From NCBI GenBank assembly GCA_041500865.1, contig JBGQMY010000005.1, positions 1 to 60,221 of the forward strand: a stretch of 60,221 nt of DNA, in the 5' to 3' direction. Positions 4,275 through 53,805 of this stretch are shown here, piece by piece. Under the pieces are notes generated by a model. It saw only the letters and a program-made list of their open reading frames with translations, made no database searches and had not been told where the DNA came from. The DNA is from Candidatus Micrarchaeia archaeon (GTDB lineage Archaea > Micrarchaeota > Micrarchaeia > Anstonellales > J096). A program made the translations under genes and the position numbers. Each line of letters opens with the position of its first letter. The first letter of the stretch is position 1.

Positions 4275-5381
4275 CTATTGATCCATGCACTGGCGAAATG
4301 ACGCCATAAAAGGAACGGGGCTTTCATTTCCAACTGTTGCCGCAATCAACTGTAATTGATTATCCATTAATTCAAAAAAACGCACGGTTTCCGTATATTT
4401 CCTTTTTCTTGCCTCGCTCAAGACTGTCTTGCCGTCATTGTTACTTGCGGCAATGAATTCCCTTGGGTCCATGCCAGCTTTTGTGCATTCGTCAATAAGC
4501 AATTTGCAGGCATTATCCCTCCCCCAAAATGCGGCAGAATGCAGGGCAGTATTGCCGTTATTGTCTGTTGCGGTGATCAGCTTTTTTACGTCGCCTCCGG
4601 CTTTTGCGCATTCCCTTATCAGCAAGATGCAGTTTTTGGCGCCCCTCCCAGATCCGGCAGCAAGATGAAACGGCGTCAGGCCATAATTATTCTTTGCAAG
4701 AATCAATTCCTTTGGGTCTCCGCCCGCTTCCCTGTATTCCCTAATGAGCAGGGCGCAGGTTTCAGAATTCTCGCTGCCTACTGCGCGGGACAGGAGTGTC
4801 ATGTTGCTGTTGTCTTTTGCGTCAATCAGCTCCTTTGCGCTTCCTTTGGCTTTTTTCCATTCTTTCAATAAGATGGCACAGGTTTCTGTGTGCCCGCCCC
4901 ATGCGGCCAGGTAAAAAGCTGACATGCCGTCTTTGTCCCTTGCGTCAATCAGCTCCTTCGGGTTTCCGCCTAATTTTGCATATTCGCCCATAAGCAGTTC
5001 GCAGATTTGCGGCTGTCCCCATTTTGCGGCCCAGTGCAGGGGCGTCAAGCCATCCTTGTCCTTTGCGGCAATCATCTCCTTCGGGTCTTTGCCTGCGCTC
5101 CCGCATTCTTCCATAATCAGGATGCAGGAATCGGCATATCCCCCGCATGCTATCCAGTGCAGGGGCGTTTGGCCATCAATATTCTTTGTGAAGATGTCAG
5201 CGCCTGCCTTTATGAGCGGCCATATATTCTCATCATTGTGATCTCTTCCAGCATATAAAAGATCGCAGTCAAGCCGTCCCTGCTCCAATATGGACCGCGC
5301 CGGCTTTTCGCTCGGCAGGATGTCTACCCTTGTTGTAAGCGGCTTTGCGGGGATTTTCTTTTGCATCTGCCTTTGCTGCAT
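4275..5381 (-). CDS. Ankyrin-repeat protein (ank1)
   Basis: About 7 repeats (GQTPLHW, GLTPLHWAA, GNTALHSAA); C-terminus FMASFRQCMDQ. Confidence 0.92.
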   Translation of the reverse strand: MQQRQMQKKIPAKPLTTRVDILPSEKPARSILEQGRLDCDLLYAGRDHNDENIWPLIKAGADIFTKNIDGQTPLHWIACGGYADSCILIMEECGSAGKDPKEMIAAKDKDGLTPLHWAAKWGQPQICELLMGEYAKLGGNPKELIDARDKDGMSAFYLAAWGGHTETCAILLKEWKKAKGSAKELIDAKDNSNMTLLSRAVGSENSETCALLIREYREAGGDPKELILAKNNYGLTPFHLAAGSGRGAKNCILLIRECAKAGGDVKKLITATDNNGNTALHSAAFWGRDNACKLLIDECTKAGMDPREFIAASNNDGKTVLSEARKRKYTETVRFFELMDNQLQLIAATVGNESPVPFMASFRQCMDQ

Positions 5382-5410
5382 ATGCCTATTGTGCGCAAAA
5401 GGGATTAAAA
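5382..5410 (-). promoter_or_regulatory. Ankyrin-gene promoter motif (TATA + TTTGCGCACAAT)
   Basis: TTTTAATCCCTTTTGCGCACAATAGGCAT-ATG; similar motif and spacing at the other ank genes. Confidence 0.6.
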
Positions 5411-5422
5411 CGCTATTGGCCC

Positions 5423-5869
5423 CTACGGAAATCTCTTCCTTGTAAGCGAAACATACGTAATCCTTCCGTCCCTGACAAAGGCATAAACCAGCTCTTTTCT
5501 CATCTTGCCGGCAATGAGCGAATCCTCAAGCAGGCTTCCTGTCTTGACTGAATCTTCAGGAACCACTTTCAGGAGGTACAGCGTCCTGTCCTCCCCAGGC
5601 CTGAATCCCTTCCTGTATACGCGGAAGAAATCCCCTGAAAGCGAAAGCCGGAGTATGTAGCCGTTTTCGCGCAGGTCCTTGTACACAAGGTATTTCTCTG
5701 CCATGCCCTTTTCCGAAAGAAAAGAAAATCCCTTCTTCAGCTTGATGTATCCCTTCTCTGCGGCATAGGCGGCCTCAAACTCGTGAAGAATTAGTTTTCC
5801 GTCTTTTTCGATGCCGAAGCCAAGCTCCATGAGCCTGTCGTCTTTAGGGAGAATAATAAGCGCCATCAT
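5423..5869 (-). CDS. endA: tRNA-intron endonuclease family subunit, probably structural (non-catalytic)
   Basis: YLVYKDLRENGY...FRVYRKG...LLKVVPEDS...MRKELVYAFV matches the EndA fold; the catalytic His position reads R (EDRT). Confidence 0.8.
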   Translation of the reverse strand: MMALIILPKDDRLMELGFGIEKDGKLILHEFEAAYAAEKGYIKLKKGFSFLSEKGMAEKYLVYKDLRENGYILRLSLSGDFFRVYRKGFRPGEDRTLYLLKVVPEDSVKTGSLLEDSLIAGKMRKELVYAFVRDGRITYVSLTRKRFP

Positions 5870-6321
5870 TCATTACCTTGGCCCTTTGCGGATTCCATCC
5901 TTTCATTTATCTCTTTGTAGAGCCTGTCGCAGTCGCCTGCAGGGAGGTCCTCTATGACAAGGTCCATGCCCGCCTCGCCGGCAGTGTCCAGCATCAGCGT
6001 CTTTAAGCCAAAGATGCGGTTGAACAGCGACACGTCCATCCTGGTGCTGGTTATCTTGGAATATGGGTAGTTCACAACTGACTTGTTGACGATGCCGCTT
6101 GAGAAGACCACGCCCTTGTCCGTGCTCTCGATGGACGTTGAGCTATATGCCACAAATGCCGATATGTCGGCAAGGACGCAGGCTATTACGACAACAGCGG
6201 CCAATGGCAGGAAAAGCTCTCCGACGAGCGATGAAAGTAGGAAAAGAACTGCCAGCAAAACCAGGCCCGACAATATGACTGCGGCCCTTTTCTTGATGTG
6301 GCTGCGCTTGACAATGACCAT
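5866..6321 (-). CDS. Membrane protein with bacterial PH domain (bPH_2-like)
   Basis: Two TM helices, then SGIVNK...PYSKIT...RIFGLKTL..DTAG. Confidence 0.75.
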   Translation of the reverse strand: MVIVKRSHIKKRAAVILSGLVLLAVLFLLSSLVGELFLPLAAVVVIACVLADISAFVAYSSTSIESTDKGVVFSSGIVNKSVVNYPYSKITSTRMDVSLFNRIFGLKTLMLDTAGEAGMDLVIEDLPAGDCDRLYKEINERMESAKGQGNE

Positions 6322-6443
6322 AAGCGGATAAGATGCGAAAGCATTTAAAAACATGCCATGGCAAGATAAGAAGACGCGCCCAAGGCGGCGCCACAATATT
6401 TAAATGTTTCATGGCAAATGCCAGAAACGCAAAAGGTGATTGA

Positions 6444-6872
6444 GTGACAACAGTGTATGACGTTGAAGCTGACAGCCTCATAAGGGCGGCGGCAGGCAAG
6501 CTTAAGGAGATGGGGCTGAAGAAGCCGGATTTCGTTGGCCTGGTGAAGACAGGGAGCCATTCCGAGAGGCCGCCGGAGCAGGAGGGATTCTGGTGGGTCA
6601 GGGCAGCCTCCATTTTGAGGAAGATATACATGAACGCCAACATGGGCGTGAACAGGCTCAGGAGGGAATACGGGGCCAAGAAGAGGATGGGCGTAAAGCC
6701 GCCGCACTTCAGGCTGGCGGGGGGCAAGACCAACAGGGTGGCGCTCCAGGAGCTGGAAAAGCTCGGGCTGCTGAAAAAGGGCGAGAACGGGAAGGGAAGG
6801 GTTCTAACGCCTGCAGGGTTCAAGTTCATGGACAGCGCGGCCAGGGAGGCCTCAAAGGGTGCGAAGAAGTGA
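6444..6872 (+). CDS. rps19e: 30S ribosomal protein S19e
   Basis: TTVYDV...VKTGSHSERPP...WWVRAASILRKIY. Confidence 0.97.
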   Translation: MTTVYDVEADSLIRAAAGKLKEMGLKKPDFVGLVKTGSHSERPPEQEGFWWVRAASILRKIYMNANMGVNRLRREYGAKKRMGVKPPHFRLAGGKTNRVALQELEKLGLLKKGENGKGRVLTPAGFKFMDSAAREASKGAKK

Positions 6873-7135
6873 GCGATGAAGCGAACCAGCAGGAGAGGGC
6901 ACAGCAGGAAGAGCAGGTGTCCAGGCTCCTGAAGGCCGGGATGGCTCCGGAGGCGTATGAAAGGCTCATAACCGTCAAGGCCGCGGACCATAAGGTCTAT
7001 GAGGCCGCGCTCAGGTACGTCCTTTATTACGTGCAAAAGGGGCAGAAGGTTGACGACAGGGCGCTTGTCAAGATACTGGAGACGGTTTCCTCGTCAATGA
7101 GGAAGGACGTCAGCATAAGTTTCAAGAGGAAATAG
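6869..7135 (+). CDS. PDCD5-like dsDNA-binding protein
   Basis: GTG overlaps the S19e stop; MAPEAYERLITVK...KVDDRALVKIL...ISFKRK; conserved position after S19e. Confidence 0.85.
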   Translation: MSDEANQQERAQQEEQVSRLLKAGMAPEAYERLITVKAADHKVYEAALRYVLYYVQKGQKVDDRALVKILETVSSSMRKDVSISFKRK

Positions 7136-7144
7136 GCGATTGAA

Positions 7145-7342
7145 ATGTCAAAGGCAAAGAGCAACAAGCTTAAGATGTGGTTAGCAAACAAGAACAGGGC
7201 CAACAGGGGCGTCCCGACCTTCGTGGTCTCAAAGACCAAGATGAAAGTGCGGTACAGCAAGAAGAGGAGGCACTGGAGGACCGAGAAGCTGGGCACGGAC
7301 TACGTGAAGACGAACAAATTCGGCAAGAAGGGAAAGAAGTGA
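7145..7342 (+). CDS. rpl39e: 50S ribosomal protein L39e
   Basis: NRGVPTFVVSKT...KRRHWRTEKL. Confidence 0.93.
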   Translation: MSKAKSNKLKMWLANKNRANRGVPTFVVSKTKMKVRYSKKRRHWRTEKLGTDYVKTNKFGKKGKK

Positions 7343-7347
7343 TTGTT

Positions 7348-7791
7348 ATGGCAGACGAAAAGGTTTACACTATCAACCTCAGGGACGCGTTCGACAAGCC
7401 AAGGGGGAAGAGGGCGCCCAAGGCGATTGACATGATTAGGGCGTTCGTAGGAAGGCATATGAAGGTCGGCTCCGAAAACGTGAGCGTAAGCAACAAGCTG
7501 AATGCGATAATATGGGCAAGGGGCATACAGAAGCCGCCAAGGAAAGTTAAAGTTAAAGTGGCAAAAACAGGCGGCATCGCCCTTGTCTACCACATAGACG
7601 AGAAGATAGAGCAGCCGAAGCCGGCCGAGAAGAAAGGGGAGAAGAAGGCTGAAGGCAAGGAGGAAAGGAAGGCCGAGGCCAAGGAAGAGAAAAAAGAGGG
7701 CGCGAAAAAGGAAGAGAAGCAGGAAAAGGCCGGAAAGGGGGCCGAAACCCCCCAGAAGAAGCCGGCGGAAAAGAAGGAAGATAAAGGATGA
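7348..7791 (+). CDS. rpl31e: 50S ribosomal protein L31e with Lys/Glu-rich tail
   Basis: VYTINLR...RAPKAI...RHMK...LNAIIWARGIQKPPRKVKV. Confidence 0.95.
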   Translation: MADEKVYTINLRDAFDKPRGKRAPKAIDMIRAFVGRHMKVGSENVSVSNKLNAIIWARGIQKPPRKVKVKVAKTGGIALVYHIDEKIEQPKPAEKKGEKKAEGKEERKAEAKEEKKEGAKKEEKQEKAGKGAETPQKKPAEKKEDKG

Positions 7792-8447
7792 TTGGCAGGG
7801 CCAACTACTACGGCAACCCGTTCATAGGGCTTTTTGCAGTAGCGAATGACAGATTGGCCATAGTCCCTTCTGGAAGCTCCAGCCCATTCGTCTCAAGGAT
7901 AAGGGAAAGCCTCAGTGTGGAAATTGTGGAAACCCTTGTCAACGAAAGCAACCTGCTTGGCATATACATGTGCATGGGCAATGAGAGCCTGGTCATACAG
8001 GAAGGCATCAATGAAACTGAAAAGAAGGCGCTTGGCTCAACGGGCCTCAATGTCGTGTACATGAAAGAAAGGCACAATGCGTGGGGGAACAACCTGTGCA
8101 TGACCTCCAAGGGCGGGATAATAAACGACGGCGTGCCAAAAGAGTCAATTAAAAAACTTGAGGACAGCCTTGGCATTGAAATCGTTCCCATGAACGTTGA
8201 CGGCTACCACACTGTCGGCAGGGTCGTAATCGCGACAGAGAAAGGTTTTGCGGTAAAGAACAGGGCGACGGAAGAGGAGATAAAGCTCATTGAATCGGTG
8301 TTGAAGGTGAAGGGCGGCGTTGCGACAGCCAACATGGGAAGCATGTTCGTGTCCGCATGCGCGATAGCCAACTCAAGCGGGCTGCTGATAGGCGAGCAGA
8401 CAACGGGCATAGAGACCTCAAGGCTGCATGACGCGCTGTGCCTTTAG
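7788..8447 (+). CDS. eif6: Translation initiation factor 6
   Basis: GNPFIGLFAVAND...TANMGS...ANSSGLLIGEQTTGIE; conserved operon position. Confidence 0.93.
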   Translation: MIGRANYYGNPFIGLFAVANDRLAIVPSGSSSPFVSRIRESLSVEIVETLVNESNLLGIYMCMGNESLVIQEGINETEKKALGSTGLNVVYMKERHNAWGNNLCMTSKGGIINDGVPKESIKKLEDSLGIEIVPMNVDGYHTVGRVVIATEKGFAVKNRATEEEIKLIESVLKVKGGVATANMGSMFVSACAIANSSGLLIGEQTTGIETSRLHDALCL

Positions 8448-8457
8448 GGGCGTTATC

Positions 8458-8781
8458 ATGATAGCATATGACGATTTTGCGAAGCTGGACATAAGGATAG
8501 GGACTGTTGAAAGCGCGGAAGACGTCCCGGGAAGCGAGAAGCTGCTCAAGCTTGTAGTAAACGTGGGCGAGGAGAAGAGGACGCTGATGGCGGGAATAAG
8601 GAAATGGTACGCAAAGGAGCAGCTCGCCGGCAGGCAGATAGCAATCCTTTTTAACCTTGAGCCCAGAATGATATTTGGCGTTGAAAGCCATGGCATGATT
8701 CTCGCGGCCGAGGACGCGGACGGAAAACTTTCCGTGCTGTGCCCGGACAAGGGAATGGCGAATGGCGCAAAGGTGAAATGA
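8458..8781 (+). CDS. Stand-alone tRNA-binding OB-fold protein (Trbp111/CsaA/MetRS C-terminal-like)
   Basis: YDDFAKLDIRIG...KLLKL...NLEPR..FGVESHGMILAA. Confidence 0.9.
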   Translation: MIAYDDFAKLDIRIGTVESAEDVPGSEKLLKLVVNVGEEKRTLMAGIRKWYAKEQLAGRQIAILFNLEPRMIFGVESHGMILAAEDADGKLSVLCPDKGMANGAKVK

Positions 8782-8782
8782 C

Positions 8783-8959
8783 ATGAAATTCAAGGTTACG
8801 GGATTTGTCAGGCTGGGAAGCGGGAAAAGGCATTTTGAGAAGGAAGTTGAAGGCAAGAACGAGTCACACGCGAAGCACATTGCGCTCTCCCTTTTCGGCT
8901 CCAACAACGGGGTCAAGAGGTCCAACATCGAGATAAGCGAAGTAAAGAAGGTGGGATGA
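8783..8959 (+). CDS. rplX: 50S ribosomal protein LX (L18Ae/L20)
   Basis: Below the ORF-track size. Manual translation MKFKVTGFVRLGSGKRHFEKEVEGKNESHAKHIALSLFGSNNGVKRSNIEISEVKKVG; conserved position before prefoldin. Confidence 0.9.
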   Translation: MKFKVTGFVRLGSGKRHFEKEVEGKNESHAKHIALSLFGSNNGVKRSNIEISEVKKVG

Positions 8960-9363
8960 TGGAAGAAGGGGAGCGGCAGCTTGACATAGAGGAACGGGCA
9001 AGGATGCTTGACGCAAGGCTCCGGAGTTTGAGGGAGAACACGGAAAGGATGGCGCAGCTCATCATGGAGTTCGAGGCCGCAAAGGCCGGCATAGGCGAAA
9101 TCAAGGGCGGAAACAAGGACGCCATAATCAATGCAGGCGGCGGCATACTCATAAAGGCGAGGCTTGAGACTGAGCGCGTCGTTGCCCCGATGGGCGCAGG
9201 CTTCTATGCATCGGTCACGCCCGAAGATGCGCTGGACAAGATAGGGAAGCTCATAGAGTCCGCAAGGAAGAACCAGGAAGCCGTGAACGGGGAAGTGAAG
9301 GTAATAGAGAAGGAGCTTGTGGGCCTGCTTAGGGAAGCCCGGGGCCCGCACCAGCATGCTTGA
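8956..9363 (+). CDS. pfdA: Prefoldin subunit alpha
   Basis: Coiled coil-hairpins-coiled coil with GGG and PMGAGFYA; operon position. Confidence 0.88.
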   Translation: MMEEGERQLDIEERARMLDARLRSLRENTERMAQLIMEFEAAKAGIGEIKGGNKDAIINAGGGILIKARLETERVVAPMGAGFYASVTPEDALDKIGKLIESARKNQEAVNGEVKVIEKELVGLLREARGPHQHA

Positions 9364-10549
9364 TTTTCTCAGGGAAAAGATAAACTCCGTTGCCTCGATA
9401 TTCTCAAAAAAGGCAGAGGAAAAGCTGCCTGAAAAGGAAACGGCAAAGGCTCCTATTGAGGAAATGCCAACTCTTCCTGTCCAGGCGCAGCCAGAAAAGG
9501 AAACTGCGGCAATGCAAAAACATGAGACACCAAAGCCTTATGTTCCTGAAGAGCAGCCAAAAGGCTCAATGCCAAAATCCGTTGTTGCTGCAGAGCTGCA
9601 AGGGAAGGAAATGCCTGAAATCCATGAGGCTGCAAAAGCGAATGACGCAAAACAGAGGATGGCGCCTGGCCTCGGCATTGTCGATGCGCTGAAAGGGAGG
9701 ATTACGGGCAAGGTCACGCTTGATTCAAAATACGTGGACGAGGCCATGGAAGGCCTGGAGATGTCCATGCTGGAGGCGGACGTGGCATTTGAGGTAGCAG
9801 AGCAGATAAAGGAAAGGTTCCGCAATGACTTGAAGGGCAAGGAGGTCCCGATGTCCTCCATTGAGACATTCATAAAGGACAGCATAAAGGACTCCTTGGG
9901 CAGCATGATGCTTGACCCGCCGGATTTGGCGGAAACGGTCAAGGCTGCCGGGAAAAAGCCGTACGTCATATTGCTTTTCGGGCTCAACGGCAGCGGGAAG
10001 ACGACCACGCTGGCCAAGCTCGCGTTCATGCTGAAGAAAAACGGTTTAAGCGTCATTGCAGTCGCAGCCGACACGTTCCGCGCGGCGTCAATAGAGCAGC
10101 TCATGCACCACGGCGAAAAAGTGGGTTTTGAGGTCGTGAAGTCCGGGTACGGGGCAGACCCGACCGCAGTGACGTTTGACGGCGTGAAGCACGCGCAGGC
10201 AAAGGGCATTGACGTCGTTTTGGTTGACACGGCAGGCAGGCAGAACGTCAACAAAAACCTGATGAAGGAGCTGCAGAAGATGTCAAGGGTTATAAAGCCG
10301 GACCTGAGCCTGTTCATCGGCGAATCCATAAGCGGCAATGCGCTGTACGATGCGGTAAGGGAATACAGCGAGGCAGTCAGCATCCAGGGCGTCATACTGA
10401 CCAAGCTTGACTTGGATGCAAAGGGCGGCTCCGTAATATCCGTTTCAAAGGCGCTGGGCGTCCCCATCTATTACCTGGCATACGGCCAGCGCTATGACGA
10501 GATGGAAAAATTCAGCAAGGAGAAGATACTCAGGAGGCTGTTCGGATAA
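9356..10549 (+). CDS. ftsY: SRP receptor FtsY
   Basis: GLNGSGKTTT, DTFRAA, DTAGR, TKLD, AKGG; acidic N-terminal region. Confidence 0.97.
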   Translation: MLDFLREKINSVASIFSKKAEEKLPEKETAKAPIEEMPTLPVQAQPEKETAAMQKHETPKPYVPEEQPKGSMPKSVVAAELQGKEMPEIHEAAKANDAKQRMAPGLGIVDALKGRITGKVTLDSKYVDEAMEGLEMSMLEADVAFEVAEQIKERFRNDLKGKEVPMSSIETFIKDSIKDSLGSMMLDPPDLAETVKAAGKKPYVILLFGLNGSGKTTTLAKLAFMLKKNGLSVIAVAADTFRAASIEQLMHHGEKVGFEVVKSGYGADPTAVTFDGVKHAQAKGIDVVLVDTAGRQNVNKNLMKELQKMSRVIKPDLSLFIGESISGNALYDAVREYSEAVSIQGVILTKLDLDAKGGSVISVSKALGVPIYYLAYGQRYDEMEKFSKEKILRRLFG

Positions 10550-23869: not shown

Positions 23870-24442
23870 TCAGGAGGCGAGGCACTCTTTGAACGATTTC
23901 AGGAATATGGCAGGCGCTTCCTTGCGCGCTGCAGCAAGCAATTCCATGAACACTAGCACCCACGTAGTGTCTTTGTGGCCATACTGCGAGGCGCATTGGC
24001 TGGCGGTTTCGGATATGGGGCAACGATGCAGGTGGGGCGTTGTTGCATTAACGTCTGCGCCGTTTTCGATGAGCAGGATGCAGGTCTTGGTGTATCCGTC
24101 CATTGCTGCTGCATGCAATGGCGTTTTGTTGGATTCGGTCCTTGCGTTCACGTCTGCGCCTTTTTGTATAAGCAAGTTGCAGGCCTGGGTGCGTCCGCTT
24201 GCTGCGGCAGCGTGCAGGGCTGTGTAGCCGTCTAAATTAACCGAATTTATTTTCGCGCCAAGCTTCAGGAGCCGGTTTATCTTGGCTATGTCGCCTTCTC
24301 TGGCAGCGTCCATGAGGTCGCGGTCAAGCATTCTCCCAGCCAACAGCCTCCTTGCTGACTTCGCGGCTGATGCCAGGACCTCCTTTGCTCGCTTACGGAA
24401 CGCCTTGGCTTTGCCGTGCCTTTCGGCCTGCTGCTGCGCCAT
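23870..24442 (-). CDS. Ankyrin-repeat protein (ank2)
   Basis: GYTALHAAA, KTPLHAAA, GADVNA; C-terminus FLKSFKECLAS; start chosen from promoter spacing. Confidence 0.92.
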   Translation of the reverse strand: MAQQQAERHGKAKAFRKRAKEVLASAAKSARRLLAGRMLDRDLMDAAREGDIAKINRLLKLGAKINSVNLDGYTALHAAAASGRTQACNLLIQKGADVNARTESNKTPLHAAAMDGYTKTCILLIENGADVNATTPHLHRCPISETASQCASQYGHKDTTWVLVFMELLAAARKEAPAIFLKSFKECLAS

Positions 24443-24472
24443 GGCTTTATTGTGCGGCAAACAGGTTAAAAA

Positions 24473-25066
24473 TCAGGCGGCAACGCACGCCCTGAACGGT
24501 TTCAGGAATGAATCCCCCATTGCATGCCCAAGCCATTCCATTGATTTAAGGAACTGGACAGTTTCAGTCCATCCGTTGCTTGTGGCTTTGTATAAGGATG
24601 TGCTGCCTGAATTGTCCTGCATACGGATGAGCTCCCTGATGCCTCCGCCGGCTTTTGCGTATTCATCTATGAGCAAGGCGCAGATTCCGGTCTGTCCATG
24701 GAATGCGGCATTGTGCAGGGCTGTTTCGCCATCATTGTCTCTTGCAATAATTAATTTCTCTATATTCCCGTTTGCTTCTTTATGTTTTTCTATCAACAGG
24801 ACGCATGTTCTGGCGTCTCCGTTGGCTGCGGCATGGAACAGGGCCGTTTCACCGAACTCGTCCTTTGCGGTGATGCTTGCCCCTGCCTTCAGCAGCCTTT
24901 TGATGCCCCCACGATCACTTATGCTGATTGCCTCCCGAAGATCCTTGTCAAGCCGCCTTCCTGCCCAAACCCTTTTCAGCGATTTGGCTGCCGAGGCCAG
25001 GGCCTGTTTTGCATATTCTTTCGGCCTTCTTGGCTTGGCTGCTTGTTGTTCCTGCTGCTGCGCCAT
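24473..25066 (-). CDS. Ankyrin-repeat protein (ank3)
   Basis: GETALFHAA, GETALHNAA; C-terminus FLKPFRACVAA. Confidence 0.92.
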   Translation of the reverse strand: MAQQQEQQAAKPRRPKEYAKQALASAAKSLKRVWAGRRLDKDLREAISISDRGGIKRLLKAGASITAKDEFGETALFHAAANGDARTCVLLIEKHKEANGNIEKLIIARDNDGETALHNAAFHGQTGICALLIDEYAKAGGGIRELIRMQDNSGSTSLYKATSNGWTETVQFLKSMEWLGHAMGDSFLKPFRACVAA

Positions 25067-25151
25067 ACTCCAATTATGCGCAAAAGGGGTTAAGAATAGG
25101 GCAGGAGGGACATACCCAATCTTTAAAAATTATCGTTAGCAACAGGGTGGC

Positions 25152-29950: not shown

Positions 29951-30157
29951 TGCCTTCTTTTGAACCCAAGTGCTTTTTCTTTGGCGCCTCAGCGCTCATT
30001 ATGCTTTTTTCTTTCCGCAGGAGCCAAAAGGCTTTCTTTTTCCCCAAGTGCTTTTTCTTTGCAAAGAAAAAGGACCTTCGCCCTGGCCGGGACCTTCAGC
30101 CCGAAGGGCTGGAGGGACTTTTGCGCTTTTTTCTGCGCAAAAAGGCCGGCGCCGCAG
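29951..30157. repeat. Composite intergenic repeat cluster downstream of tRNA-Asp, including a duplicated tRNA 3' end
   Basis: tgccttcttttgaacccaag; ctttttctttgcaaagaaaaag; cgccctggccggga at 30079-30092 equals 30158-30171. Confidence 0.75.
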
Positions 30158-30316: not shown

Positions 30317-30997
30317 ATGAATCCCGAGGATGCGCTGGAGTCCAGCATGGGCAAGGACGGGCTGGAAGCAAAAATCAAGGAGAAGATGGAGGAGCTTTCG
30401 GGCCTTGTTGACAGGGAGAAAGCAATAGGCCTCATCGCAGAGGAAAGGGGGCTCACAGGCACCGGTTTTGTTGGCATAAACGAGCTCAGGGACGGCATGA
30501 AGGGCTTCAGCCTAAAGGCAACAGTTGATTACGTCTCGGACACTGTAAAGACGCCCAAAACCAGCTTTAGGGACGTTGGAATATTCAACGAAGAGGGAAA
30601 GGCGGTTTTGCGGTTTTGGAGGACGCAGTATGAAAAGCATAGGCTGGTGCATGGCGACGAGGTTCTGCTCAGGGGCTGCAACTTCGCCTTTGGCGCGGTC
30701 CAGCTTGGCTACGACGGCTCAATAACGGTGCTGAAAAGGGCAGGGTTCAAGGCATTGGACGCCGTGGAAAAGGAAGGCATCTATAACCTCAGGGGGAGGC
30801 TACAGAAGAAGGACGAGGGCTATGTCCTTACAGGGGAAGGGAAAGAGCTGCCGACAGACACTGAATCAGGGGCCTTTGAGGGAGAGGCCCTGCTTGAGCG
30901 GTTCAGCTGGGACGGCAAGGTTCTCAGGCGGACGGCCCACAGTAGGATATTTAAAAAGTTGCCCAGCGTAAGGGATAATGCTGCGGAAGCCCCGTAG
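30317..30997 (+). CDS. RPA/SSB-like OB-fold protein
   Basis: N-terminal helical KIKEKMEELSGLVDREKAIGLIAEERG followed by an OB fold (INELRDG...LRFW...VQLG). Confidence 0.7.
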   Translation: MNPEDALESSMGKDGLEAKIKEKMEELSGLVDREKAIGLIAEERGLTGTGFVGINELRDGMKGFSLKATVDYVSDTVKTPKTSFRDVGIFNEEGKAVLRFWRTQYEKHRLVHGDEVLLRGCNFAFGAVQLGYDGSITVLKRAGFKALDAVEKEGIYNLRGRLQKKDEGYVLTGEGKELPTDTESGAFEGEALLERFSWDGKVLRRTAHSRIFKKLPSVRDNAAEAP

Positions 30998-31060
30998 TCT
31001 AGCGGTTAAGGATATCAGGCTCTGGACCTGGGGACCCCGGTTCGAATCCGGGCGGGGCTA
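30988..31060 (+). tRNA. tRNA-Gln: tRNA-Gln(CTG)
   Basis: AGCCCCGTAGTCTAGCGG...TCAGG-CT-CTG-GA-CCTGG...GGTTCGAATCCGGGCGGGGCTA. Confidence 0.96.
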
Positions 31061-31182
31061 AGTCCTTTTTCTTTGCGAAGAAAAATCACTTGGGGAAAAA
31101 GAAAGCATTTTGGCGCCTGTGGGCGCTAAACCGTTTCCTGGCTTTCCGGATGAGAACCGGAGGCGAGAATCCGGGCGGGTTA
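31061..31182. repeat. Intergenic repeat downstream of tRNA-Gln ending in a partial copy of the tRNA 3' end
   Basis: gtcctttttctttgcgaagaaaaatcacttggggaaaaagaaagc nearly identical to the rc element after the tRNA-Asp duplicate; gaatccgggcggg repeated at 31167. Confidence 0.75.
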
Positions 31183-31216
31183 GGGGTTTTTAACTTCTTT
31201 TTAGCATAATTTAAGC

Positions 31217-31818
31217 ATGGAACAAAGGAAGAGAGAACCAATGATTCGCAGGATTGCGCAAAAGGCAAGGGCACTGCTCCTGCGCAAGCCAAAAGCCGAG
31301 GGAGCAAAAAGGATAAGCAGGGTAGAACAAAGATATTGGATGAAAAGATTTATGACATTTCATTCATTAAGAGCTTTGGTGAAGAATACCTTGGCGAGTT
31401 CCAAAGGCTATTGAAAGCGGGGGCGAATCCGGACATAAGAGATGAAAAAGGCAGAACCCCTTTAATGGGCGCTGCGCAATCCCAGGACATCCAGTTTGTA
31501 AAGGCTTTGCTTGAGCATGGGGCGGATGTGAATGCAAAAGACAATGACGGCACCGCTGCGCTGAATTATGCAGGATTTGATGGGATATTCCAATGGCATT
31601 ACTGCAGAAAGTACAAAAACCTGGCAGAAACTGTCATGCTTCTGCTGGCAAACGGAGCCAAAACCAGCAAAAAGAACAAGGAGATGATGGCATCGTTTGA
31701 GACTGAAAAAGGCTCTCCGGAATACCGCGTGAAGGCAATGGCTGAATTTGCCGGATACGTTGGATATGATAATTACAGTAGCTTTTTAGCCAATTTCAAG
31801 GAATGCATAGGCAGATAG
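31217..31818 (+). pseudogene. Ankyrin-repeat gene (ank4) split by an apparent 1-nt frameshift near 31328-31332
   Basis: ORF 31217 holds the basic leader. ORF 31336 holds ankyrin repeats (GRTPLMGAA, GADVNAKD) and C-terminus FLANFKECIGR. Joining gives EQKILDEK, like paralog EQKSLDSE. Confidence 0.7.
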
Positions 31819-31908
31819 CGCCAAACCAAGGGTTCGGCCATAACCGGACCGATAGCGTTTTTAACCCTCCCTTATCCAGATAACGGCATAGCTGCAATGG
31901 CAGTGTAA

Positions 31909-40984: not shown

Positions 40985-41539
40985 TTATGCCAGATGTATG
41001 CAATTATAGAAGGATTTCAGGAAGGACGGTGCAGTTTTCTGCCCAAAGGCGGCGCTCAATTGCTCAATGGCCTCAAGGAACAGCTCCGTTTCCTTGTGGC
41101 CGAGGTTCTTGGCAACGTCCTTGGCTTTGAGTTTTCCGCGGTCCAGTGCGCCTTTTTCCAGCAGCAGCATGCAGGTTTCGGTGTGTGCATTATATGCGGC
41201 ACAATACAGAGGCGTCCTGCCGTCATTGTCCTCTGCGTTCACATTTGCGCCGTTTTCTATCAGCAGTGCGCAGGTTTCTGCGCAGCTGAAGCTCGCGACC
41301 CAGTGAAGGGTGGTCCAGCCGTGCGCGCTTCTTGCATTTGGGCTTGCGCCTTTCTTTAGTAGCGGCAAGATATCAGCATCGCCATATGAGGCTGCCAGGC
41401 GGAGCGCACGGTCCAGGTCCCCGCGCTTGCTTGAGCGCATCAGCATCCTTTTGGCGGATCTTCTTGCTGATTCAAGCAGACGCACCGCTCTTTTCGTTAT
41501 AGGAAGCTTTAGTTTCTTGCTGGCAAAGCTTTGCTCCAT
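40985..41539 (-). CDS. Ankyrin-repeat protein (ank5)
   Basis: GWTTLHWVA, GANVNAED, GRTPLYCAA; C-terminus FLKSFYNCIHLA. Confidence 0.92.
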   Translation of the reverse strand: MEQSFASKKLKLPITKRAVRLLESARRSAKRMLMRSSKRGDLDRALRLAASYGDADILPLLKKGASPNARSAHGWTTLHWVASFSCAETCALLIENGANVNAEDNDGRTPLYCAAYNAHTETCMLLLEKGALDRGKLKAKDVAKNLGHKETELFLEAIEQLSAAFGQKTAPSFLKSFYNCIHLA

Positions 41540-41577
41540 GCCTCTATTGTACGACAGAGAGATTATAAATGTGGATG

Positions 41578-41713: not shown

Positions 41714-42136
41714 TCAGCGGCGTTGGTGTCTAAGCGGCATCTGGCATATTTCCCTGATAAGGGCAATCGCCGCGGCATGGGCCTTTTCGGCGTATTCATC
41801 ATCGGTATCGTCATTAATATATTCTTGGATTACCCTGTCTATTTCATCTTCACTCGCTTTCTTCGCAATTGCGGGCCTCTTCGCCGCCTTCCGCGCATTG
41901 TCCAAATCAGCCCTTGACAGGTTGAACCGCTTGGCGATTATCGGTATCATTTCATAGCCTTGGGTTGCGAAAAGCTCTCTTGCAAGGTTCATCGCGCAGG
42001 CCCTTGCGGCAGCCGGCCTTTTGCATGTTTCGGCTATCTCGGCGCAGAGCTTGAGCTTTTCCAGCCTTGGAAGCGCCCTAACCTTGAATGTGCCTCCGCG
42101 CACTGCGATTGCCCAGTGGGCGTTAATCCTCGCCAT
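41714..42136 (-). CDS. Hypothetical helical protein
   Basis: 140-aa ORF with TTTAAAAA TATA about 29 nt upstream of ATG. Confidence 0.6.
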   Translation of the reverse strand: MARINAHWAIAVRGGTFKVRALPRLEKLKLCAEIAETCKRPAAARACAMNLARELFATQGYEMIPIIAKRFNLSRADLDNARKAAKRPAIAKKASEDEIDRVIQEYINDDTDDEYAEKAHAAAIALIREICQMPLRHQRR

Positions 42137-48381: not shown

Positions 48382-49902
48382 TCAGCCGCGGGCAATGCTT
48401 ACGGTTGCCGTGTACGCATTCAGGTCCTTGCTTAACACCGAAATCTCGGCAGACGTGGAATTGGTTATCCTGACGGTCTTGGACGCGCCTGGCGCAACCA
48501 TCACGTTTGAAACGAGATCCCCGCCGGCATTGTAAACTTCAAATATGGGATTGTTCGGGCTGCTTGAATCAAAGTCGTAAAGGCAAACCTTGGCAACGTC
48601 GTTGCTGACGCACTCGTCAAAGCCGATTGTGCCGCTCACGGCGTTGTTGCCGATTTTCGTGTCCGTTGCAGACACAAGCGCCCAAACCGAAGAGCCGCTT
48701 GCCATGGTTCCATAGACGTATATCATTACGGCATTGCTGTCGTCAACATTAACCTGTTCTGAAGCTCCTTGCGCGATCTGTATGTTTGACGAGAACTTGC
48801 CGTTCGCGCCATAGACTGTCAATATGGCATCATGCGTCTTTGTGTCCATGTCAGAAAGGCAAACGCTGGCATGCGACGTGTTGACGCACTCGTCGTAGAA
48901 AAGCAGCCTGCCGCCGAAATCGGACGATGTGTACTTGACTGTCGTGTTGGCCCATGCCGAGCCGTTGGTTATTATTGTCTGCGAAACCGTGATCAGGATG
49001 TCCTTGCCTCCCCCTATAACTATCGATGTGGGGTCCTGCACCTGGACCATGACATTTGATATGAACTTGCCGTTCGCGCCATAGAGCGAGAAAATCGCCT
49101 GGTGCGGCCAGTCCACTGCAACGTCCTCAAGGCAGGCGCTGGAATTTGCAAGGTTTACGCAGTCGCCTATCTGTAGCATCCCCTGGGAGACCAATACTGA
49201 CTGCCTGGAATAAATGCCGGAGTCCCTTATGTATACAAGCGCCTGTATGTCGCTTCCGTTTATGGCGGTAGAGTAAACCGAGACGTATATGAACTTGCCG
49301 TTCCCGAGCGATGCAATTCCGTTGCCGTTTGGCGCGACCTCGATGTTGGATGAAAGCTTGCCCTTGGCGTCATAGACTGTGAGTATGGCGTCGTTGGGCG
49401 ATTCAGCCGCAAGGTCGGAAAGGCACACCTTGCCGTTTGACACGGTTAGGCAGTCGTTGTAGTGCAGCAGCCCGCCCGAGCCGTTTATGGTGTTAGCAGT
49501 TATCGTGTTGTTGGCCGGATGGCTGTTCCTGCCCGAGCTTGACGAGCCTGAGTTTCCGCCGGACGAGCCTCCGTAAGTGCCGGTATCATTGTAGACAATC
49601 GTTATGTTTGTGTGGTTGCTTACTGTGCCATTGGTCAAGTTTGAAGTTGTGTTGATTATGTTGCTGGCATTGGCGCTTTGGTTGGCAATGGCGCTCCCGT
49701 TGCCTGAGATGTTCTTGGGTATTGAGGCATTGGCCAAAACATTGGTTGCGTTTGCAACCACATGCGGAACTGAGGCATTGGCAGTGATGTTTTCCTGAAC
49801 AGTGTCGTTCGCCCCGGCTCCGGACAGCGTCATGTAGCCGCCTACGCCCAGCAGCAGCACTGCGCCAGCAAGGAGGAAAGATGCCATTATCTCGTTTTTC
49901 AT
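48382..49902 (-). CDS. Surface protein with four S-layer-like modules
   Basis: N-terminal TM, Asn/Ser/Thr-rich linker with many N-x-S/T sequons, 4 x (C..VCLSD..AILTVY..GK..SN) modules resembling an S-layer segment. Confidence 0.8.
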   Translation of the reverse strand: MKNEIMASFLLAGAVLLLGVGGYMTLSGAGANDTVQENITANASVPHVVANATNVLANASIPKNISGNGSAIANQSANASNIINTTSNLTNGTVSNHTNITIVYNDTGTYGGSSGGNSGSSSSGRNSHPANNTITANTINGSGGLLHYNDCLTVSNGKVCLSDLAAESPNDAILTVYDAKGKLSSNIEVAPNGNGIASLGNGKFIYVSVYSTAINGSDIQALVYIRDSGIYSRQSVLVSQGMLQIGDCVNLANSSACLEDVAVDWPHQAIFSLYGANGKFISNVMVQVQDPTSIVIGGGKDILITVSQTIITNGSAWANTTVKYTSSDFGGRLLFYDECVNTSHASVCLSDMDTKTHDAILTVYGANGKFSSNIQIAQGASEQVNVDDSNAVMIYVYGTMASGSSVWALVSATDTKIGNNAVSGTIGFDECVSNDVAKVCLYDFDSSSPNNPIFEVYNAGGDLVSNVMVAPGASKTVRITNSTSAEISVLSKDLNAYTATVSIARG

Positions 49903-49960
49903 GTTCAGCCACCTTTATTACGATATTTATTACGATATCATCCAAATTTAAAAAAACAAA

Positions 49961-51430
49961 TCAGTATTGGATGCCCTGTCCCAGTGCGTTCATGCCTTCT
50001 GTGGATATTACATACCTTCCTGCAGGGAGTGTTGAAAGGTCAACGATGCCCCTGTTCCCGTTGAACGGAAGCGAGACGACCAGCCTTCCTGAGACGTCAA
50101 AGACGCTCGCGGTATGGTTTCCGGGCTTTGCGAACACAAGGCCGTACCTGTTGTGCGAGAGCTGCACTATCCTGTCCATGTGCGCCGTAAAGAGCCCCTT
50201 TGACGTGTTCAGCACGCTGCCGACCGGGATGCTGGACTCTATGTTGGCTGTGGCGAACGCCGAGTTCTTGCCGACTGCAAGGTCTGTTATCGTTATTGTC
50301 AGTGCCTTGCCGTTGCGGCCAGAGAACGTTGCTTCCTTGCCCACGGTTGCCTGCACGGTGCTGCCGTTGACGTCAAACACAGCGATTGAATCGTGCGCAT
50401 CCACAAGCTTTATCGTCCCGAAGGACGTGTCAAGCGTGACCGATTGGCCCAGCGTGAAGATGGATGTGTTCTGCACCGGCTCAACCGCCAAATCCGCCGT
50501 CACCGTAGTTCCGACTTGGCTTGCATCCTTTGCCGTTATGGAGATGCCAATGCCAGTCGCGCTGTCAACTATCGAAACGGACTTGTTTATGCTGAGCTGT
50601 TCGCTGATTGTTGCGCCTTTTGGCGTCTTTACCGTGGCCGCGACATAGCTCGCGGTTCCGGTGGAATCCACCTTTTGGCCTATGCCCGTAACCGATATCG
50701 TGTATCCGTATGCGCTCAGCGGGGCGCTGTTTGTTACGCTCTTTACTGTGTTGACATCCGTTACCTGGAGCTCAACCGAGGATTCTGAGAACGTTGAAAC
50801 TGTGCGAATTGCCTTGATGTCAACAGCCTCGCCCGGCGTTGCGCCAACGGCAACCCTCTTCGTCTCGCCTGGCCCTATCTGGATGATTGAGACGCCCCTA
50901 ACCGTGCGGATTGTAAGTATGGCATCATAGCTGCCGTCCTTGTTCGGAACCCTGGCAAAGTCTGTTGCTGTTATGCTGGTCCCGAGCGTGTCCTTGGACG
51001 CCCCCTGATTAAGCGTAAAGGCCGTGTCCGGCCCTGTCAGCGATGTGGTGTCAAACGAGAACCAGATGGTCCTGACGCCGACTGTAACGCCCAATAGCTT
51101 GACGTTGGTTTTGTCAACGACCATTGAGTCCCCTTCCCTTATCGCTGTTTTGCTGGATGAGCCTCCGGCCGGCGTGACAGTAAGCAGCGCGCCGTATTTT
51201 CCGTTGCCGTCCTTTGCAAGCAGGGAATCGGGGCTAAGCGTTGTGTTGTTCTTTGTGCTGAAGGCCTCTCCCTTTTTCAGCAGAAGCTCTGTTGCCTGTG
51301 CCGTCACGGCAGCTGCCGTGGTAAGCGCCAAAACCGCTTTCCCGGCCATAGAGAAATAACGTCTCGCCTTTGACTTTTTGTTAACCGCAGGCGCTGTGCC
51401 CGCAACCGAGGATTTGATTGAATTTGCCAT
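49961..51430 (-). CDS. Exported beta-rich protein with C-terminal T9SS type-A-like sorting domain
   Basis: Basic leader plus signal peptide (AVTAQA); C-terminus SVFDVSGRLV...VDLSTLPAGRYVI. Confidence 0.75.
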   Translation of the reverse strand: MANSIKSSVAGTAPAVNKKSKARRYFSMAGKAVLALTTAAAVTAQATELLLKKGEAFSTKNNTTLSPDSLLAKDGNGKYGALLTVTPAGGSSSKTAIREGDSMVVDKTNVKLLGVTVGVRTIWFSFDTTSLTGPDTAFTLNQGASKDTLGTSITATDFARVPNKDGSYDAILTIRTVRGVSIIQIGPGETKRVAVGATPGEAVDIKAIRTVSTFSESSVELQVTDVNTVKSVTNSAPLSAYGYTISVTGIGQKVDSTGTASYVAATVKTPKGATISEQLSINKSVSIVDSATGIGISITAKDASQVGTTVTADLAVEPVQNTSIFTLGQSVTLDTSFGTIKLVDAHDSIAVFDVNGSTVQATVGKEATFSGRNGKALTITITDLAVGKNSAFATANIESSIPVGSVLNTSKGLFTAHMDRIVQLSHNRYGLVFAKPGNHTASVFDVSGRLVVSLPFNGNRGIVDLSTLPAGRYVISTEGMNALGQGIQY

Positions 51431-51539
51431 ACGGGCCTTTTGATTAATAGGGTTTTTAAAAGTGTATGAAATTGTTAGTTACTTGCCAAGCCTCCGACGG
51501 AAGCGGGATATTGTGTTTAAAAATGTTTCCGTAGGCCCC

Positions 51540-52130
51540 CTACTTTTCCATGCGCCTGAGCGCCTCATACGCCCCGTAAAGGAACATTGCTGCGCCCAGC
51601 ACAAGCGCGCCATAGAGCAGCATAGGGCTTGGCTCCTGCGTGGCTGCGGCAGGGACAGCGGTGGCATTGGCCTCCTCTGCGGCTGATGGATTCTGCGCCT
51701 CTGCGCGAGCCGTAAGCACCATAGTCCCGTTTTCATCAGGCGCGATGCCCGCAGCTGCAGGCGACAATAGCTGCTCCGGGGAAGGGGCCGGATAAAGGAT
51801 GGACATTCCTGAGAATGCCATGAAAACCAGGCCGAACGCAAGCAGCAGGATTGCCCTTGTGGGGAACCCGGGCTTTGGCGCGGCCAGCTTCCTGCCAATC
51901 GCAGTAAGCTCGTAATACTTCCATTTCCTGCCCTCATCAACCTTTTCCAATAAACCGGCTGATTCGAGGTGCGCCAGGTGCTCAAGGACCGTCGGGGAGG
52001 AAAGCCCCAGGCTTTCGGCCAATTGGCTCTGCGTCTTTCTCCCGTTTGCAAGCAATTTCAGTATTGAAATCCTGCTTTCCGCGCCTATCGCCTTGAGCAG
52101 CGCCCTGTTTATCACGACCTCGTCGTCCAT
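51540..52130 (-). CDS. ArsR-family HTH regulator with C-terminal TM segments
   Basis: LKAIGAESRISILKLL...SQLAESLGLSSPTVLEHL..LESAGLL..KWKYYELT; 2 TM. Confidence 0.88.
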   Translation of the reverse strand: MDDEVVINRALLKAIGAESRISILKLLANGRKTQSQLAESLGLSSPTVLEHLAHLESAGLLEKVDEGRKWKYYELTAIGRKLAAPKPGFPTRAILLLAFGLVFMAFSGMSILYPAPSPEQLLSPAAAGIAPDENGTMVLTARAEAQNPSAAEEANATAVPAAATQEPSPMLLYGALVLGAAMFLYGAYEALRRMEK

Positions 52131-52131
52131 C

Positions 52132-52983
52132 TCAGCTCATCCCGTATGACACGGAAACGGACGCATACACGTCAACCTGGCCCGGCGAAATCGGCGTGGC
52201 CTGCGCCTCGGCTACGTTTGATGCGGCCCTGTTGTAGTTGGCCTGGTATGTGGGGTAATAATAGTATCCCGAGCTTGCGGAAAGCGGCTTTCCGAGCGTT
52301 GCCCCGATGCCTGCAGCTATGTTCTCTGCCTTTGCCCTTGCCGCTTCCGAGGCGTTCCGCAGCAGCGAGAGCTCAACGGAGTTCCTGGTCGAGCCCTTCA
52401 GCGAGAACTGTATGGAGTCTATGGTCTCCGCGCCTGACGAGATGATAAGGTCCGTTACAGCGCCTCCGCTGCTTACGTTGTATACGTCAACAGAAACGCT
52501 GTGGATTGTCCTGTACCCGGAAAGCGTCTGGTTGTAGGTCTTGATTTTGTCGTCGCAAACGGCCCCGGCGTCGCCCGGGCAAATCCAGTCATAGGTGTAT
52601 TCCGGGGAGATGCCATAGCTCACTGTCTCGATGTCCTCGTCCTTCACTCCGGCGCCCCTGAGCGCATCCTTCACGCTTGACATCCTTGCGGCGTTCTCCT
52701 CCTGCGATGCCTTTGCCGTGGCATTGAGCGTGCTGACCGAGAAGCTTATCGTCATGAGGTCGGGCTGGACGCTCCTTTTGGCCTCGCCGTAAACGTCAAT
52801 GTGGTTCGGCGGCTGGATGCCCGTGAGGTTGGCCACGTTTATCACGGTCTGGCCGCCTGTGCCGACTATGGACTTCGTTGCCAGGAACAGCAGCGCGCCA
52901 GCAACTATTATCATAATGGCGAAAACTATCATCCTTCCGGAACCGCAACAAACGCATTTTCCAGCATTATCATCAGACATCAT
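52132..52983 (-). CDS. SIMPL (DUF541) domain protein
   Basis: IDVYGEA..VQPD, DIETVSYGISPEY, ARAKAENIA, PISPGQVDV.ASVSVSY. Confidence 0.9.
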   Translation of the reverse strand: MMSDDNAGKCVCCGSGRMIVFAIMIIVAGALLFLATKSIVGTGGQTVINVANLTGIQPPNHIDVYGEAKRSVQPDLMTISFSVSTLNATAKASQEENAARMSSVKDALRGAGVKDEDIETVSYGISPEYTYDWICPGDAGAVCDDKIKTYNQTLSGYRTIHSVSVDVYNVSSGGAVTDLIISSGAETIDSIQFSLKGSTRNSVELSLLRNASEAARAKAENIAAGIGATLGKPLSASSGYYYYPTYQANYNRAASNVAEAQATPISPGQVDVYASVSVSYGMS

Positions 52984-53055
52984 ACCACCTGGAAATGATT
53001 GGATGCGCATTGTATAAAAACCGAGCGGAAATTGTTAGGCGGCCGCCTAAACCGA

Positions 53056-53775
53056 TTAGGCAACGCACTCGCCGAAGGATTCAAAGAACGCGCCTGGAAG
53101 CGATGCCATGAATTTTAGGAACTGCGCTGTTTGGGTGCGCTCGTAAGTCGTGGCACCGTCCGTTGCCCTGTCCAGCGGCGTTTTGCGTTCCTTGTCCCTT
53201 GCTGCCAGAAGGTCATTTATGTCTCCGCCCTCCCTTATGTATTTCCCGAGCAGAAGGGCGCAGGTTTTTACATGCCCGTTCCATGCGGCGCTGTGCATGG
53301 GCGTCATGCGCTGCCTGTCCTTTGAGAAAATCAGCTTCTTTGCGTCCCCGCCGGCTTTTTTGTATGCCTCGATAATCAAGATGCACGTATCCGTGTATCC
53401 ATACTCCGCGGCATTGTATATGGGCGTTCTCTTTTCTGACCTTGTCTTTGCGGTAATTAGTTTTTTTACGTCCCTGCCTGATTTTGCGTATTCTTTTAGG
53501 AGCAGGGCGCAGGTTTGGGTATGGCCGATCGATGCGGCCCGGTGCAGGGCCGTCACGCAATCATCGCCCCTTGCGTCCAGGCCTGCGCCGTTCCTTATCA
53601 CCTGCAACACCTGCAGGTTGTTCCCTTTGCCGGCTGCGTCCAAAAGCTCGGAATCAAGCGACTTCTGCTCCCAAAAGTCCAATGCCGGCTTCTCGCTTGG
53701 CAGGATGTCCTGCCTTGGCTTTCTTGTTTTTGCCTTTTCAATCATCCGCATTAGGAATGATTTTCTTTCCTGCAT
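53056..53775 (-). CDS. Ankyrin-repeat protein (ank6)
   Basis: TALHRAA, TPIYNAA, TPMHSAA; C-terminus FFESFGECVA; start chosen from promoter spacing. Confidence 0.92.
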   Translation of the reverse strand: MQERKSFLMRMIEKAKTRKPRQDILPSEKPALDFWEQKSLDSELLDAAGKGNNLQVLQVIRNGAGLDARGDDCVTALHRAASIGHTQTCALLLKEYAKSGRDVKKLITAKTRSEKRTPIYNAAEYGYTDTCILIIEAYKKAGGDAKKLIFSKDRQRMTPMHSAAWNGHVKTCALLLGKYIREGGDINDLLAARDKERKTPLDRATDGATTYERTQTAQFLKFMASLPGAFFESFGECVA

Positions 53776-53805
53776 GTTTCCATTGTGCGGCAAAGGAATT
53801 AAAAT

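Follow-up and report, generated by a model that had tools for sequence, protein, structure and literature searches.

What function could be served by six similar ankyrin-repeat genes set among unrelated genes of a tiny archaeal genome? The question is raised by positions 1 to 60,221 of contig JBGQMY010000005.1 (assembly GCA_041500865.1, Candidatus Micrarchaeia archaeon), a stretch of 60,221 nucleotides that is called the window below and in which six open reading frames (ORFs) between positions 4275 and 53775 encode ankyrin repeats with a basic N-terminal leader and a short C-terminal F-x3-F-x2-C tail. An earlier interpretation, made without database searches and called here the sequence-only reading, had taken the six for a co-regulated set of host-directed effectors. 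We found that they belong to a family whose tail is restricted, in the genomes sampled, to one genus. Our reading, to which we give a probability of about one half, is that the family consists of some 90-120 small soluble ankyrin proteins acting as co-regulated, fast-turnover modular adaptors, with a variable ankyrin surface between constant docking ends, and with a probable use in host interaction.

Judged by its proteins, the source organism is a Micrarchaeota (DPANN) archaeon, as the sequence-only reading had placed it: the window prolyl-tRNA synthetase (ProRS), which is of archaeal type, is 52-60% identical to proteins of Micrarchaeota metagenome-assembled genomes, and an S-layer protein is also encoded in the window. 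The assembly amounts to 1.04 Mb on 36 contigs (completeness 92%, contamination 0.17%), a tiny genome, and the organism is probably dependent on a host. Host dependence of DPANN archaea is stated in passages of PMC7414124, which also treat ankyrin proteins as a symbiont-type cell-interaction domain and describe the Undinarchaeota as being without such genes. This was the only DPANN paper to surface with the word ankyrin in a full-text search, and our literature search found no description of an ankyrin expansion in Micrarchaeota, the supplementary tables of PMC7414124, possibly with ankyrin counts for other DPANN, lying outside that search. Comparisons were made with 41 relatives (3 genomes of the genus, 16 others of the same taxonomic family and 22 more of the order) and with a phylum sample of 401 genomes from 155 genera; both sets are samples in which many genomes are incomplete, the two other carriers of the ankyrin family being 77% and 86% complete.

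A family of tailed ankyrin proteins in one genus

All six window ORFs were ankyrin proteins by Pfam (Ank_2, E values of 1.6e-12 to 6e-38, 48-130 bits against a curated cut-off of 27.3) and fell within the clan Ank (PF12796, PF00023, PF13637). When the six were aligned, the F, F and C of the tail were invariant, with identity to the first member being only 22-38%, and the Cys was followed by 3, 3, 3, 3, 4 and 2 residues. This confirmed the ankyrin assignment and the tail on all six that had been proposed from the sequence, and the tripartite layout of leader, ankyrin repeats and tail is likewise real by Pfam, alignment and hidden Markov models (HMMs). The leader was borne out as Lys/Arg-rich and non-hydrophobic, the first 35 residues of the six proteins containing 7-11 K+R against 2-5 D+E. 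In a simple hydropathy test the best 15-residue Kyte-Doolittle mean within the first 40 residues was -0.63 to 0.65, with no Sec or Tat signal peptide seen, and no 19-residue window with a Kyte-Doolittle value of 1.6 or more was found in the six proteins and 40 other members. The genes do sit, as described earlier, between unrelated genes, their neighbours being housekeeping genes (tRNA-intron endonuclease, ScpA, ProRS, OFOR, MFS, SIMPL) and tRNAs.

Six is the count for the window only. Across the genome there were 120 non-overlapping ankyrin ORFs on 23 contigs, together 81,327 bp or 7.8% of the assembly, 92 of them with the tail. An anchored regular expression for the tail matched 93 of the 8,082 ORFs of at least 60 residues, against 2 in reversed sequences and a mean of 4.8 with shuffled C-termini, so the pattern is not due to chance. 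An HMM of the tail, built from the last 45 residues of alignment A3, also found 93 ORFs in the genome, where the sequence-only reading had counted a six-member family; 92 had an ankyrin core and the remaining one was a 55-residue ankyrin fragment at a contig end. The leader HMM found 68 ORFs, 65 of them ankyrin ORFs and the other three being parts of family genes, either remnants or cut at a contig edge.

When 1.84 billion representative proteins were searched with the profile, 873 matched at E <=0.001. Among the 149 new proteins listed, 68 bore the anchored tail (lengths of 41-312 residues), 52 of them from outside the source genome, and the other listed matches were long multi-repeat ankyrin proteins that matched only the ankyrin-like first third of the profile. 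Ten tail-bearing matches were checked, nine of them chosen for having a single matched stretch, and all ten were ankyrin proteins; twelve database relatives that were inspected carried leaders of the same kinds. Leader and tail had been put forward as a portable signal that might be found on other cargo, a suggestion that failed, both being found only on ankyrin proteins in the genome scans and the database matches checked. Two apparent non-ankyrin carriers of the leader were rejected: a methyltransferase (G000:C12:25008-25829) was leader-like by eye and gave no leader-HMM score even at E 100, and the ORF at G000:C8:17319-17963 scored only E 7. Searching the ESM Atlas with tail residues 163-197 gave no lead, the best score of 0.88 being for a 22-residue hypothetical protein and the others, at <=0.81, for generic ankyrin clusters.

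Within the three genomes of the genus the tail HMM gave 95, 26 and 38 matches, and it gave none in the 38 other relatives (16 of the same taxonomic family and 22 further genomes of the order); in the phylum sample it was found in 1 of 155 genera. The tail is restricted to one genus in the genomes sampled. Of the 41 relatives, 25 have ankyrin repeats as such, and further expansions among them reach 71, 33, 22 and 17 matches. Copies have been gained and lost at syntenic sites. In the sister species (G002) the pair at 23870-25066 was replaced by a gap of about 120 bp, and the site between two tRNA-Arg genes, which holds one gene in the window, held three tails and promoters; the flanking genes of the two species are 68-82% identical in DNA.

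The constant ends of the proteins

AlphaFold2 models of the products of gene 3 (197 residues) and gene 6 (239 residues), the genes being numbered in window order, had a mean predicted local distance difference test (pLDDT) score of 93 and 91, respectively, and displayed the stacked helix-turn-helix repeat fold with N- and C-caps. Solved structures of whole DARPins, caps included, superposed on residues 35/38-223/226 of the gene 6 model (Z of about 22, root-mean-square deviation of 1.1-1.6, 155-162 residues). The LD-x-x-L motif, which the sequence-only reading had placed at the end of the leader, instead belongs in this model to the N-cap helix of the ankyrin domain (34-50), and the first half of the conserved tail forms the final C-cap helix (214-225). 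Because the DARPins align to 35/38-223/226, residues 1-33 and the helix at 228-238, which carries F-x3-F-x2-C, are in the model additions to an already complete ankyrin domain. Residues 1-30 of the gene 6 head had a pLDDT of 57-62, and the gene 3 head, which is of another sub-type (..ASAAKSLKRVWAGRR..), was predicted as a single long helix over residues 15-48. The predicted complex of two copies of the gene 3 product (P0003, alignment A2) scored 0.01, which is no evidence either way.

The tail F, F and C are under purifying selection. Codons at the three invariant positions match genome-wide usage (TTC/TTT 67/22 and 70/19, TGC/TGT 83/6) and third positions of the tail core are only 0.42 identical between paralogs, so that selection on the protein, rather than recent gene conversion, maintains the residues.

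These results bear on the possibility that both ends are only lineage-specific structural caps inherited from a founder gene, without any signalling or docking role, and that the family acts inside the archaeon, for example as decoys or neutralisers of host or viral proteins. The ends do occur only on ankyrin paralogs, the conserved tail region takes in the second helix of the C-cap, the i, i+4, i+7 spacing is the ordinary one for residues on one face of a helix, and the PADLOC search, which assigned no defence system, did return generic ankyrin-domain similarity (PDC-M72A, 'Ankyrin'). Capping, however, needs no invariant Cys across 89 paralogs whose synonymous sites are randomised, the basic head, some 30 residues predicted with low confidence, is no cap, and DARPins are stable without either addition. 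We regard the purely structural explanation as possible, if rather doubtful.

A second explanation would make the tail a CaaX-like lipidation signal, its Cys being prenylated by a host enzyme or an unknown archaeal one to provide a membrane anchor. Legionella pneumophila AnkB, which consists of an F-box, ankyrin repeats and a C-terminal CaaX, offers the precedent of an ankyrin protein with a Cys near the C-terminus, and 54 of 89 tails share its CxxX spacing, with exactly three residues past the Cys, the first being I, V or L (endings such as CVAA, CLAS and CIGQ). A methyltransferase of the PEMT/ICMT superfamily was moreover found in 3/3 genomes of the genus and 0/16 others of the taxonomic family. 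Unlike in AnkB, though, the offset varies: the Cys is not four residues from the C-terminus throughout the family, since 35 of the 89 tails have 2, 4 or 5 residues after it (19, 11 and 5 tails), and in the database relatives the offset is 3 in 44, 2 in 18, 4 in 3 and 5 in 3. The second residue after the Cys is mostly the small A, G or S and not the aliphatic a2, and neither a prenyltransferase (PF00432) nor an Rce1-like protease (PF02517) was found in the three genomes of the genus (0/3 for each). The methyltransferase fits PEMT (44.4 bits) as well as ICMT (42.8 bits) and is also present in 8 of the 22 tail-less genomes of the order. Its gene (G000:C6:41760-42479, L080:2261-2980) encodes a membrane protein of the PEMT/ICMT type and is the next one downstream of the gene for a form III-like RuBisCO large subunit; with no tie to the ankyrin genes, it was set aside as an ambiguous candidate for a CaaX enzyme.

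A comparable motif in another genus also bears on lipidation. G008, of the sister genus g7 (L081-L093), has a separate ankyrin expansion with 71 Ank_2 matches, in which the proteins of one sub-family have a K/E-rich leader peculiar to them (MEVKDKEKKKF...RRLSEEEVFRRVLE) and carry a C-terminal module with an invariant L-x3-L-x2-C-x-K followed by 14-18 further residues. An HMM of this module had 16 matches in G008 and none in the 40 other genomes, and aligning the tail of our genus (A3) with that of the sister genus (A5) by hhalign gave a probability of 0.2%, with no detectable homology. The shared spacing may reflect nothing but one face of a helix. Since the Cys of the sister genus is internal, a function of the helix face is favoured over a signal for C-terminal processing, and we consider lipidation of the tail highly improbable.

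The upstream element and the gene copies of the window

All six genes are preceded by a TATA-like box and a related proximal element of 23 nucleotides. Across the genome a TATA-like heptamer begins at -32 to -28 of the first ATG in 143 of 603 long non-ankyrin ORFs, and just 55 of the same 603 have a Shine-Dalgarno-like motif; because of these two counts, leaderless mRNAs with a TATA box about 30 nucleotides before the ATG are predicted to be the rule in this organism, and the box would be generic rather than specific to the family. The 23 nucleotides between box and ATG differ in this respect. Before ankyrin genes (n=66) they read ccccTTTgcCGCAcAATaaAggC, whereas positions -23 to -1 are almost unconserved before 152 non-ankyrin genes whose TATA box has the same position; mean pairwise identity of the element was 0.39, compared to 0.26 further upstream. 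A position weight matrix (PWM) of the element gave 74 matches abutting an ATG, 60 of them before ankyrin ORFs, 4 before family remnants and about 10 before other genes.

Matches to a 24-mer consensus at <=3 mismatches numbered 43, 15 and 3 in the three genomes of the genus. Outside the genus there were 2 matches at 3 mismatches in G011 and none in the remaining 37 genomes, and the reversed 24-mer gave 0 matches in 40 genomes and 1 in one. The claim of a shared promoter thus holds for the element, which is family-specific, conserved across species and consistent with co-regulation, and not for the generic TATA box. As a non-coding 23-mer is conserved where the flanking genes are only 68-82% identical, the comparison argues for a function, most simply that of an operator overlapping the start site. 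An inverted repeat within the element (CCTTT-N10-AAAGG) has a poorly conserved right arm and nothing is claimed from it.

Among the non-ankyrin genes with the element are a 140-residue ORF of the window (41714-42136, minus strand) without a Pfam match and ORFs at G000:C12:25008-25829, C17:6451-8103, C8:17319-17963 and C2:58585-59772, the carriers including two methyltransferase-domain proteins. Such genes could be co-regulated partners of the family. Directly before the T-rich TATA box of about nine listed members there is a GC-rich palindrome, GCGC-N4-6-GCGC (for example at window positions 53808-53830), which may mark a terminator-plus-promoter cassette boundary.

Five of the window genes are intact, all on the minus strand, with probable starts at ATGs 5381, 24442, 25066, 41539 and 53775, which the promoter element adjoins in every case; TTG codons further upstream, at 24460 and 53823, fall within that element. 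Gene 1 (4275-5381) encodes 368 residues with a basic leader containing DILPSEKPA, about eight ankyrin repeats and the tail FMASFRQCMDQ, and its promoter (5382-5413, minus strand) combines a TATA-like box with the proximal element, matching the 24-mer at 5387-5410 with 2 mismatches. Genes 2 and 3 form the pair. Gene 2 (23870-24442) encodes 190 residues from ATG 24442, with a helical basic leader (..ASAAKSARRLL..) and the tail FLKSFKECLAS, and the TATA box of its promoter (24443-24474, minus strand; 24-mer at 24448-24471, 2 mismatches) begins directly past the stop codon of gene 3. Gene 3 (24473-25066; 197 residues, tail FLKPFRACVAA) is the source of the first modelled protein and has a weaker copy of the element in its promoter (25067-25098, minus strand; TATTCTTAA ... 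TTTTGCGCATAAT). Gene 5 (40985-41539; 184 residues, P0004, tail FLKSFYNCIHLA) lies between two tRNA-Arg genes behind the promoter at 41540-41571 (minus strand; TTTATAA ... CGTACAATAGAGGC). Gene 6 (53056-53775) encodes the second modelled protein, of 239 residues from ATG 53775, with a low-confidence basic leader that also contains DILPSEKPA and the tail FFESFGECVA; its promoter (53776-53807, minus strand) matches the 24-mer at 53781-53804 with 1 mismatch. The promoters of genes 1, 2 and 6 are the three in the window that match the 24-mer within 3 mismatches.

Gene 4, on the plus strand, is frameshifted. Its promoter (31185-31216; TTTTTAA ... TTTTTAGCATAAT; PWM score 17.5) lies directly downstream of tRNA-Gln and is followed by a leader ORF of 65 residues (31217-31414; MEQRKREPMIRRIAQK..., or MEQRKRE...RISRVEQ), read from 31217 to a stop at 31414. 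The ankyrin body and the tail FLANFKECIGR are in another frame, open from 31210, in which the sole start is TTG 31336 (31336-31818, 160 residues). Comparison with intact relatives shows the frames diverging right past the VEQ codons, where there is a short A run near 31329-31335. Over 30900-31900, contigs of four sediment runs were examined; the frameshift area was covered by the probable source run and by one contig of run X4, and not by X2 or X3. As the X4 contig, which comes from another study, is identical to 31274-31401, the break is probably in the DNA rather than a slip of the assembly, with the evidence being this one contig at a depth of 3.5. Immediately downstream of the same tRNA-Gln there is a hairpin-forming repeat of about 55 nucleotides (window 31060-31113; core TTTTTCTT-TGCG-AAGAAAAA), of which about 10 full or partial copies occur in the genome, including window 30018-30075, and which is present on many different contigs in four sediment metagenomes.

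Remnants of the family elsewhere include a promoter fused straight to an 18-codon, tail-only ORF (G000:C11:280-336), a truncated leader ORF of 29 codons beginning MQERQ... (G000:C8, about 210-300) and a start codon with an immediate TAG (G000:C26:10447-10452). Decay and recombination are continuing in this family.

A possible use against a host

The sequence-only reading had gone further and taken the leader and/or the tail for a non-Sec export or targeting signal, by which the proteins would be passed as cargo into a host, possibly through a HerA/VirD4-like ATPase at 1-1399. The ATPase gene (2-1399, minus strand) encodes a partial P-loop protein of HerA/FtsK type, truncated by the contig end, with Pfam matches to DUF87 (36.8 bits) and TrwB_AAD_bind (27 bits, about 55 residues only) and weak PADLOC matches to mad8 and HerA. 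Export would be in keeping with these weak DUF87/HerA and TrwB matches, with the lack of a signal peptide or membrane segment by hydropathy, with the strong constraint on both ends outside the ankyrin fold and with a large ankyrin expansion in a small-genome lineage that is generally held, as in passages of PMC7414124, to be host-dependent. The postulated link to the ATPase did not survive a check of co-occurrence, however: homologs were found in 16 of the 41 relatives, of which 15 are without the family, and in 0/2 of the other family carriers (77% and 86% complete). Head and tail were also never found on another kind of cargo in the HMM scans and the database matches tested, the tail has E or D beside the Cys and so is no basic secretion tail, and the ATPase adjoins Lon_C-like and phage-metallopeptidase-like genes and not secretion genes. 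Export in the form proposed is accordingly unlikely in our judgement. The ATPase gene faces that of a 547-residue protein with a weak Lon_C match (1471-3114), followed by a 257-residue ORF without a Pfam match (3089-3862) and a 135-residue 'putative phage metallopeptidase' (3864-4271); window positions 2-4271 may be a mobile or defence island rather than a secretion locus.

Legionella, Coxiella and Rickettsiales, including Wolbachia and Orientia, are host-dependent bacteria with repertoires of ankyrin effectors. The family described here resembles these repertoires in its dozens of fast-evolving ankyrin paralogs, scattered among housekeeping genes of a reduced and probably host-dependent genome and free of a Sec signal. 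It differs in its archaeal origin, no recognised secretion system being linked to it, and in the small size of the proteins (about 150-370 residues), which have the same head, tail and promoter element throughout, the tail being found in one genus only. The closest analogues in design are poxvirus ANK/PRANC proteins, Orientia Ank F-box proteins and animal ASB proteins (ankyrin plus SOCS box), in which a short, conserved helical motif at the C-terminus, placed after variable ankyrin repeats, ties many ankyrin binders to one machine. None of the six window proteins had an F-box, PRANC or SOCS-box match in Pfam at E <=0.01; the motif here, in contrast, is F-x3-F-x2-C at the extreme end of the protein, and we know of no SCF/cullin partner in archaea.

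In the reading that we favour, that of co-regulated adaptors, each gene would be transcribed as a leaderless mRNA from an ordinary TATA box and the family-specific 23-nucleotide element reaching the ATG, this element being most likely the operator of one shared regulator, so that the family would behave as a regulon. Each protein would be a complete DARPin-like ankyrin domain of 2 to about 9 repeats with a variable surface, preceded by a basic extension of 30-45 residues (low-confidence in one sub-type, a predicted helix in another) and followed by an extra C-terminal helix of 11-12 residues, predicted to set the F, the F and the invariant Cys on one face. With their variable surfaces the proteins would recognise a wide range of targets, most plausibly proteins of the host or of invaders, and through the constant ends all members would be attached to the same partner or the same place. 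A shared regulator, docking by the ends and a function directed at the host are inferred, the host targets in particular from the lifestyle of the lineage and the size of the expansion.

Several points weigh against this reading. Regulator, partner, targets and host are all putative, and leaderless transcription and the start sites are predicted from sequence. The tail helix could be either packed on the C-cap as a plain extra cap or free to dock, and 28 of the 120 ankyrin ORFs are without the tail, some having decayed or extended versions of it. The genomes of one genus represent a single evolutionary event. The proximal element is also carried by the roughly 10 non-ankyrin genes, and the upstream regions of the family itself supplied both the PWM and the 24-mer, which makes matches there partly circular; for this reason the independent support for the promoter comes from the non-ankyrin control and from the other genomes.

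A more speculative and, in our view, improbable extension would be that Micrarchaeota have repeatedly built lineage-specific arsenals of ankyrin proteins, each with its own basic head, its own helix of the hydrophobic-x3-hydrophobic-x2-Cys type and a private operator by which its members would be switched on together. The proteins would pass to the host archaeon via the cell-cell junction, and the Cys helix would dock, perhaps by a covalent bond or a metal, to the machinery of transfer or anchoring. If true, this would be an archaeal effector system without a bacterial-type secretion apparatus.

The molecular means by which DPANN archaea deal with their hosts are, to our knowledge, still obscure. 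The ankyrin family is an obvious candidate for the toolkit involved: it fills about 8% of a 1-Mb genome, purifying selection acts on both of its ends, its copies come and go between sister species, and it has a private promoter element. It also provides experimental handles, as the 23-nucleotide operator could lead to the regulator and the 12-residue Cys helix to the common partner, and the targets of about 100 natural ankyrin binders could name the host proteins that matter.

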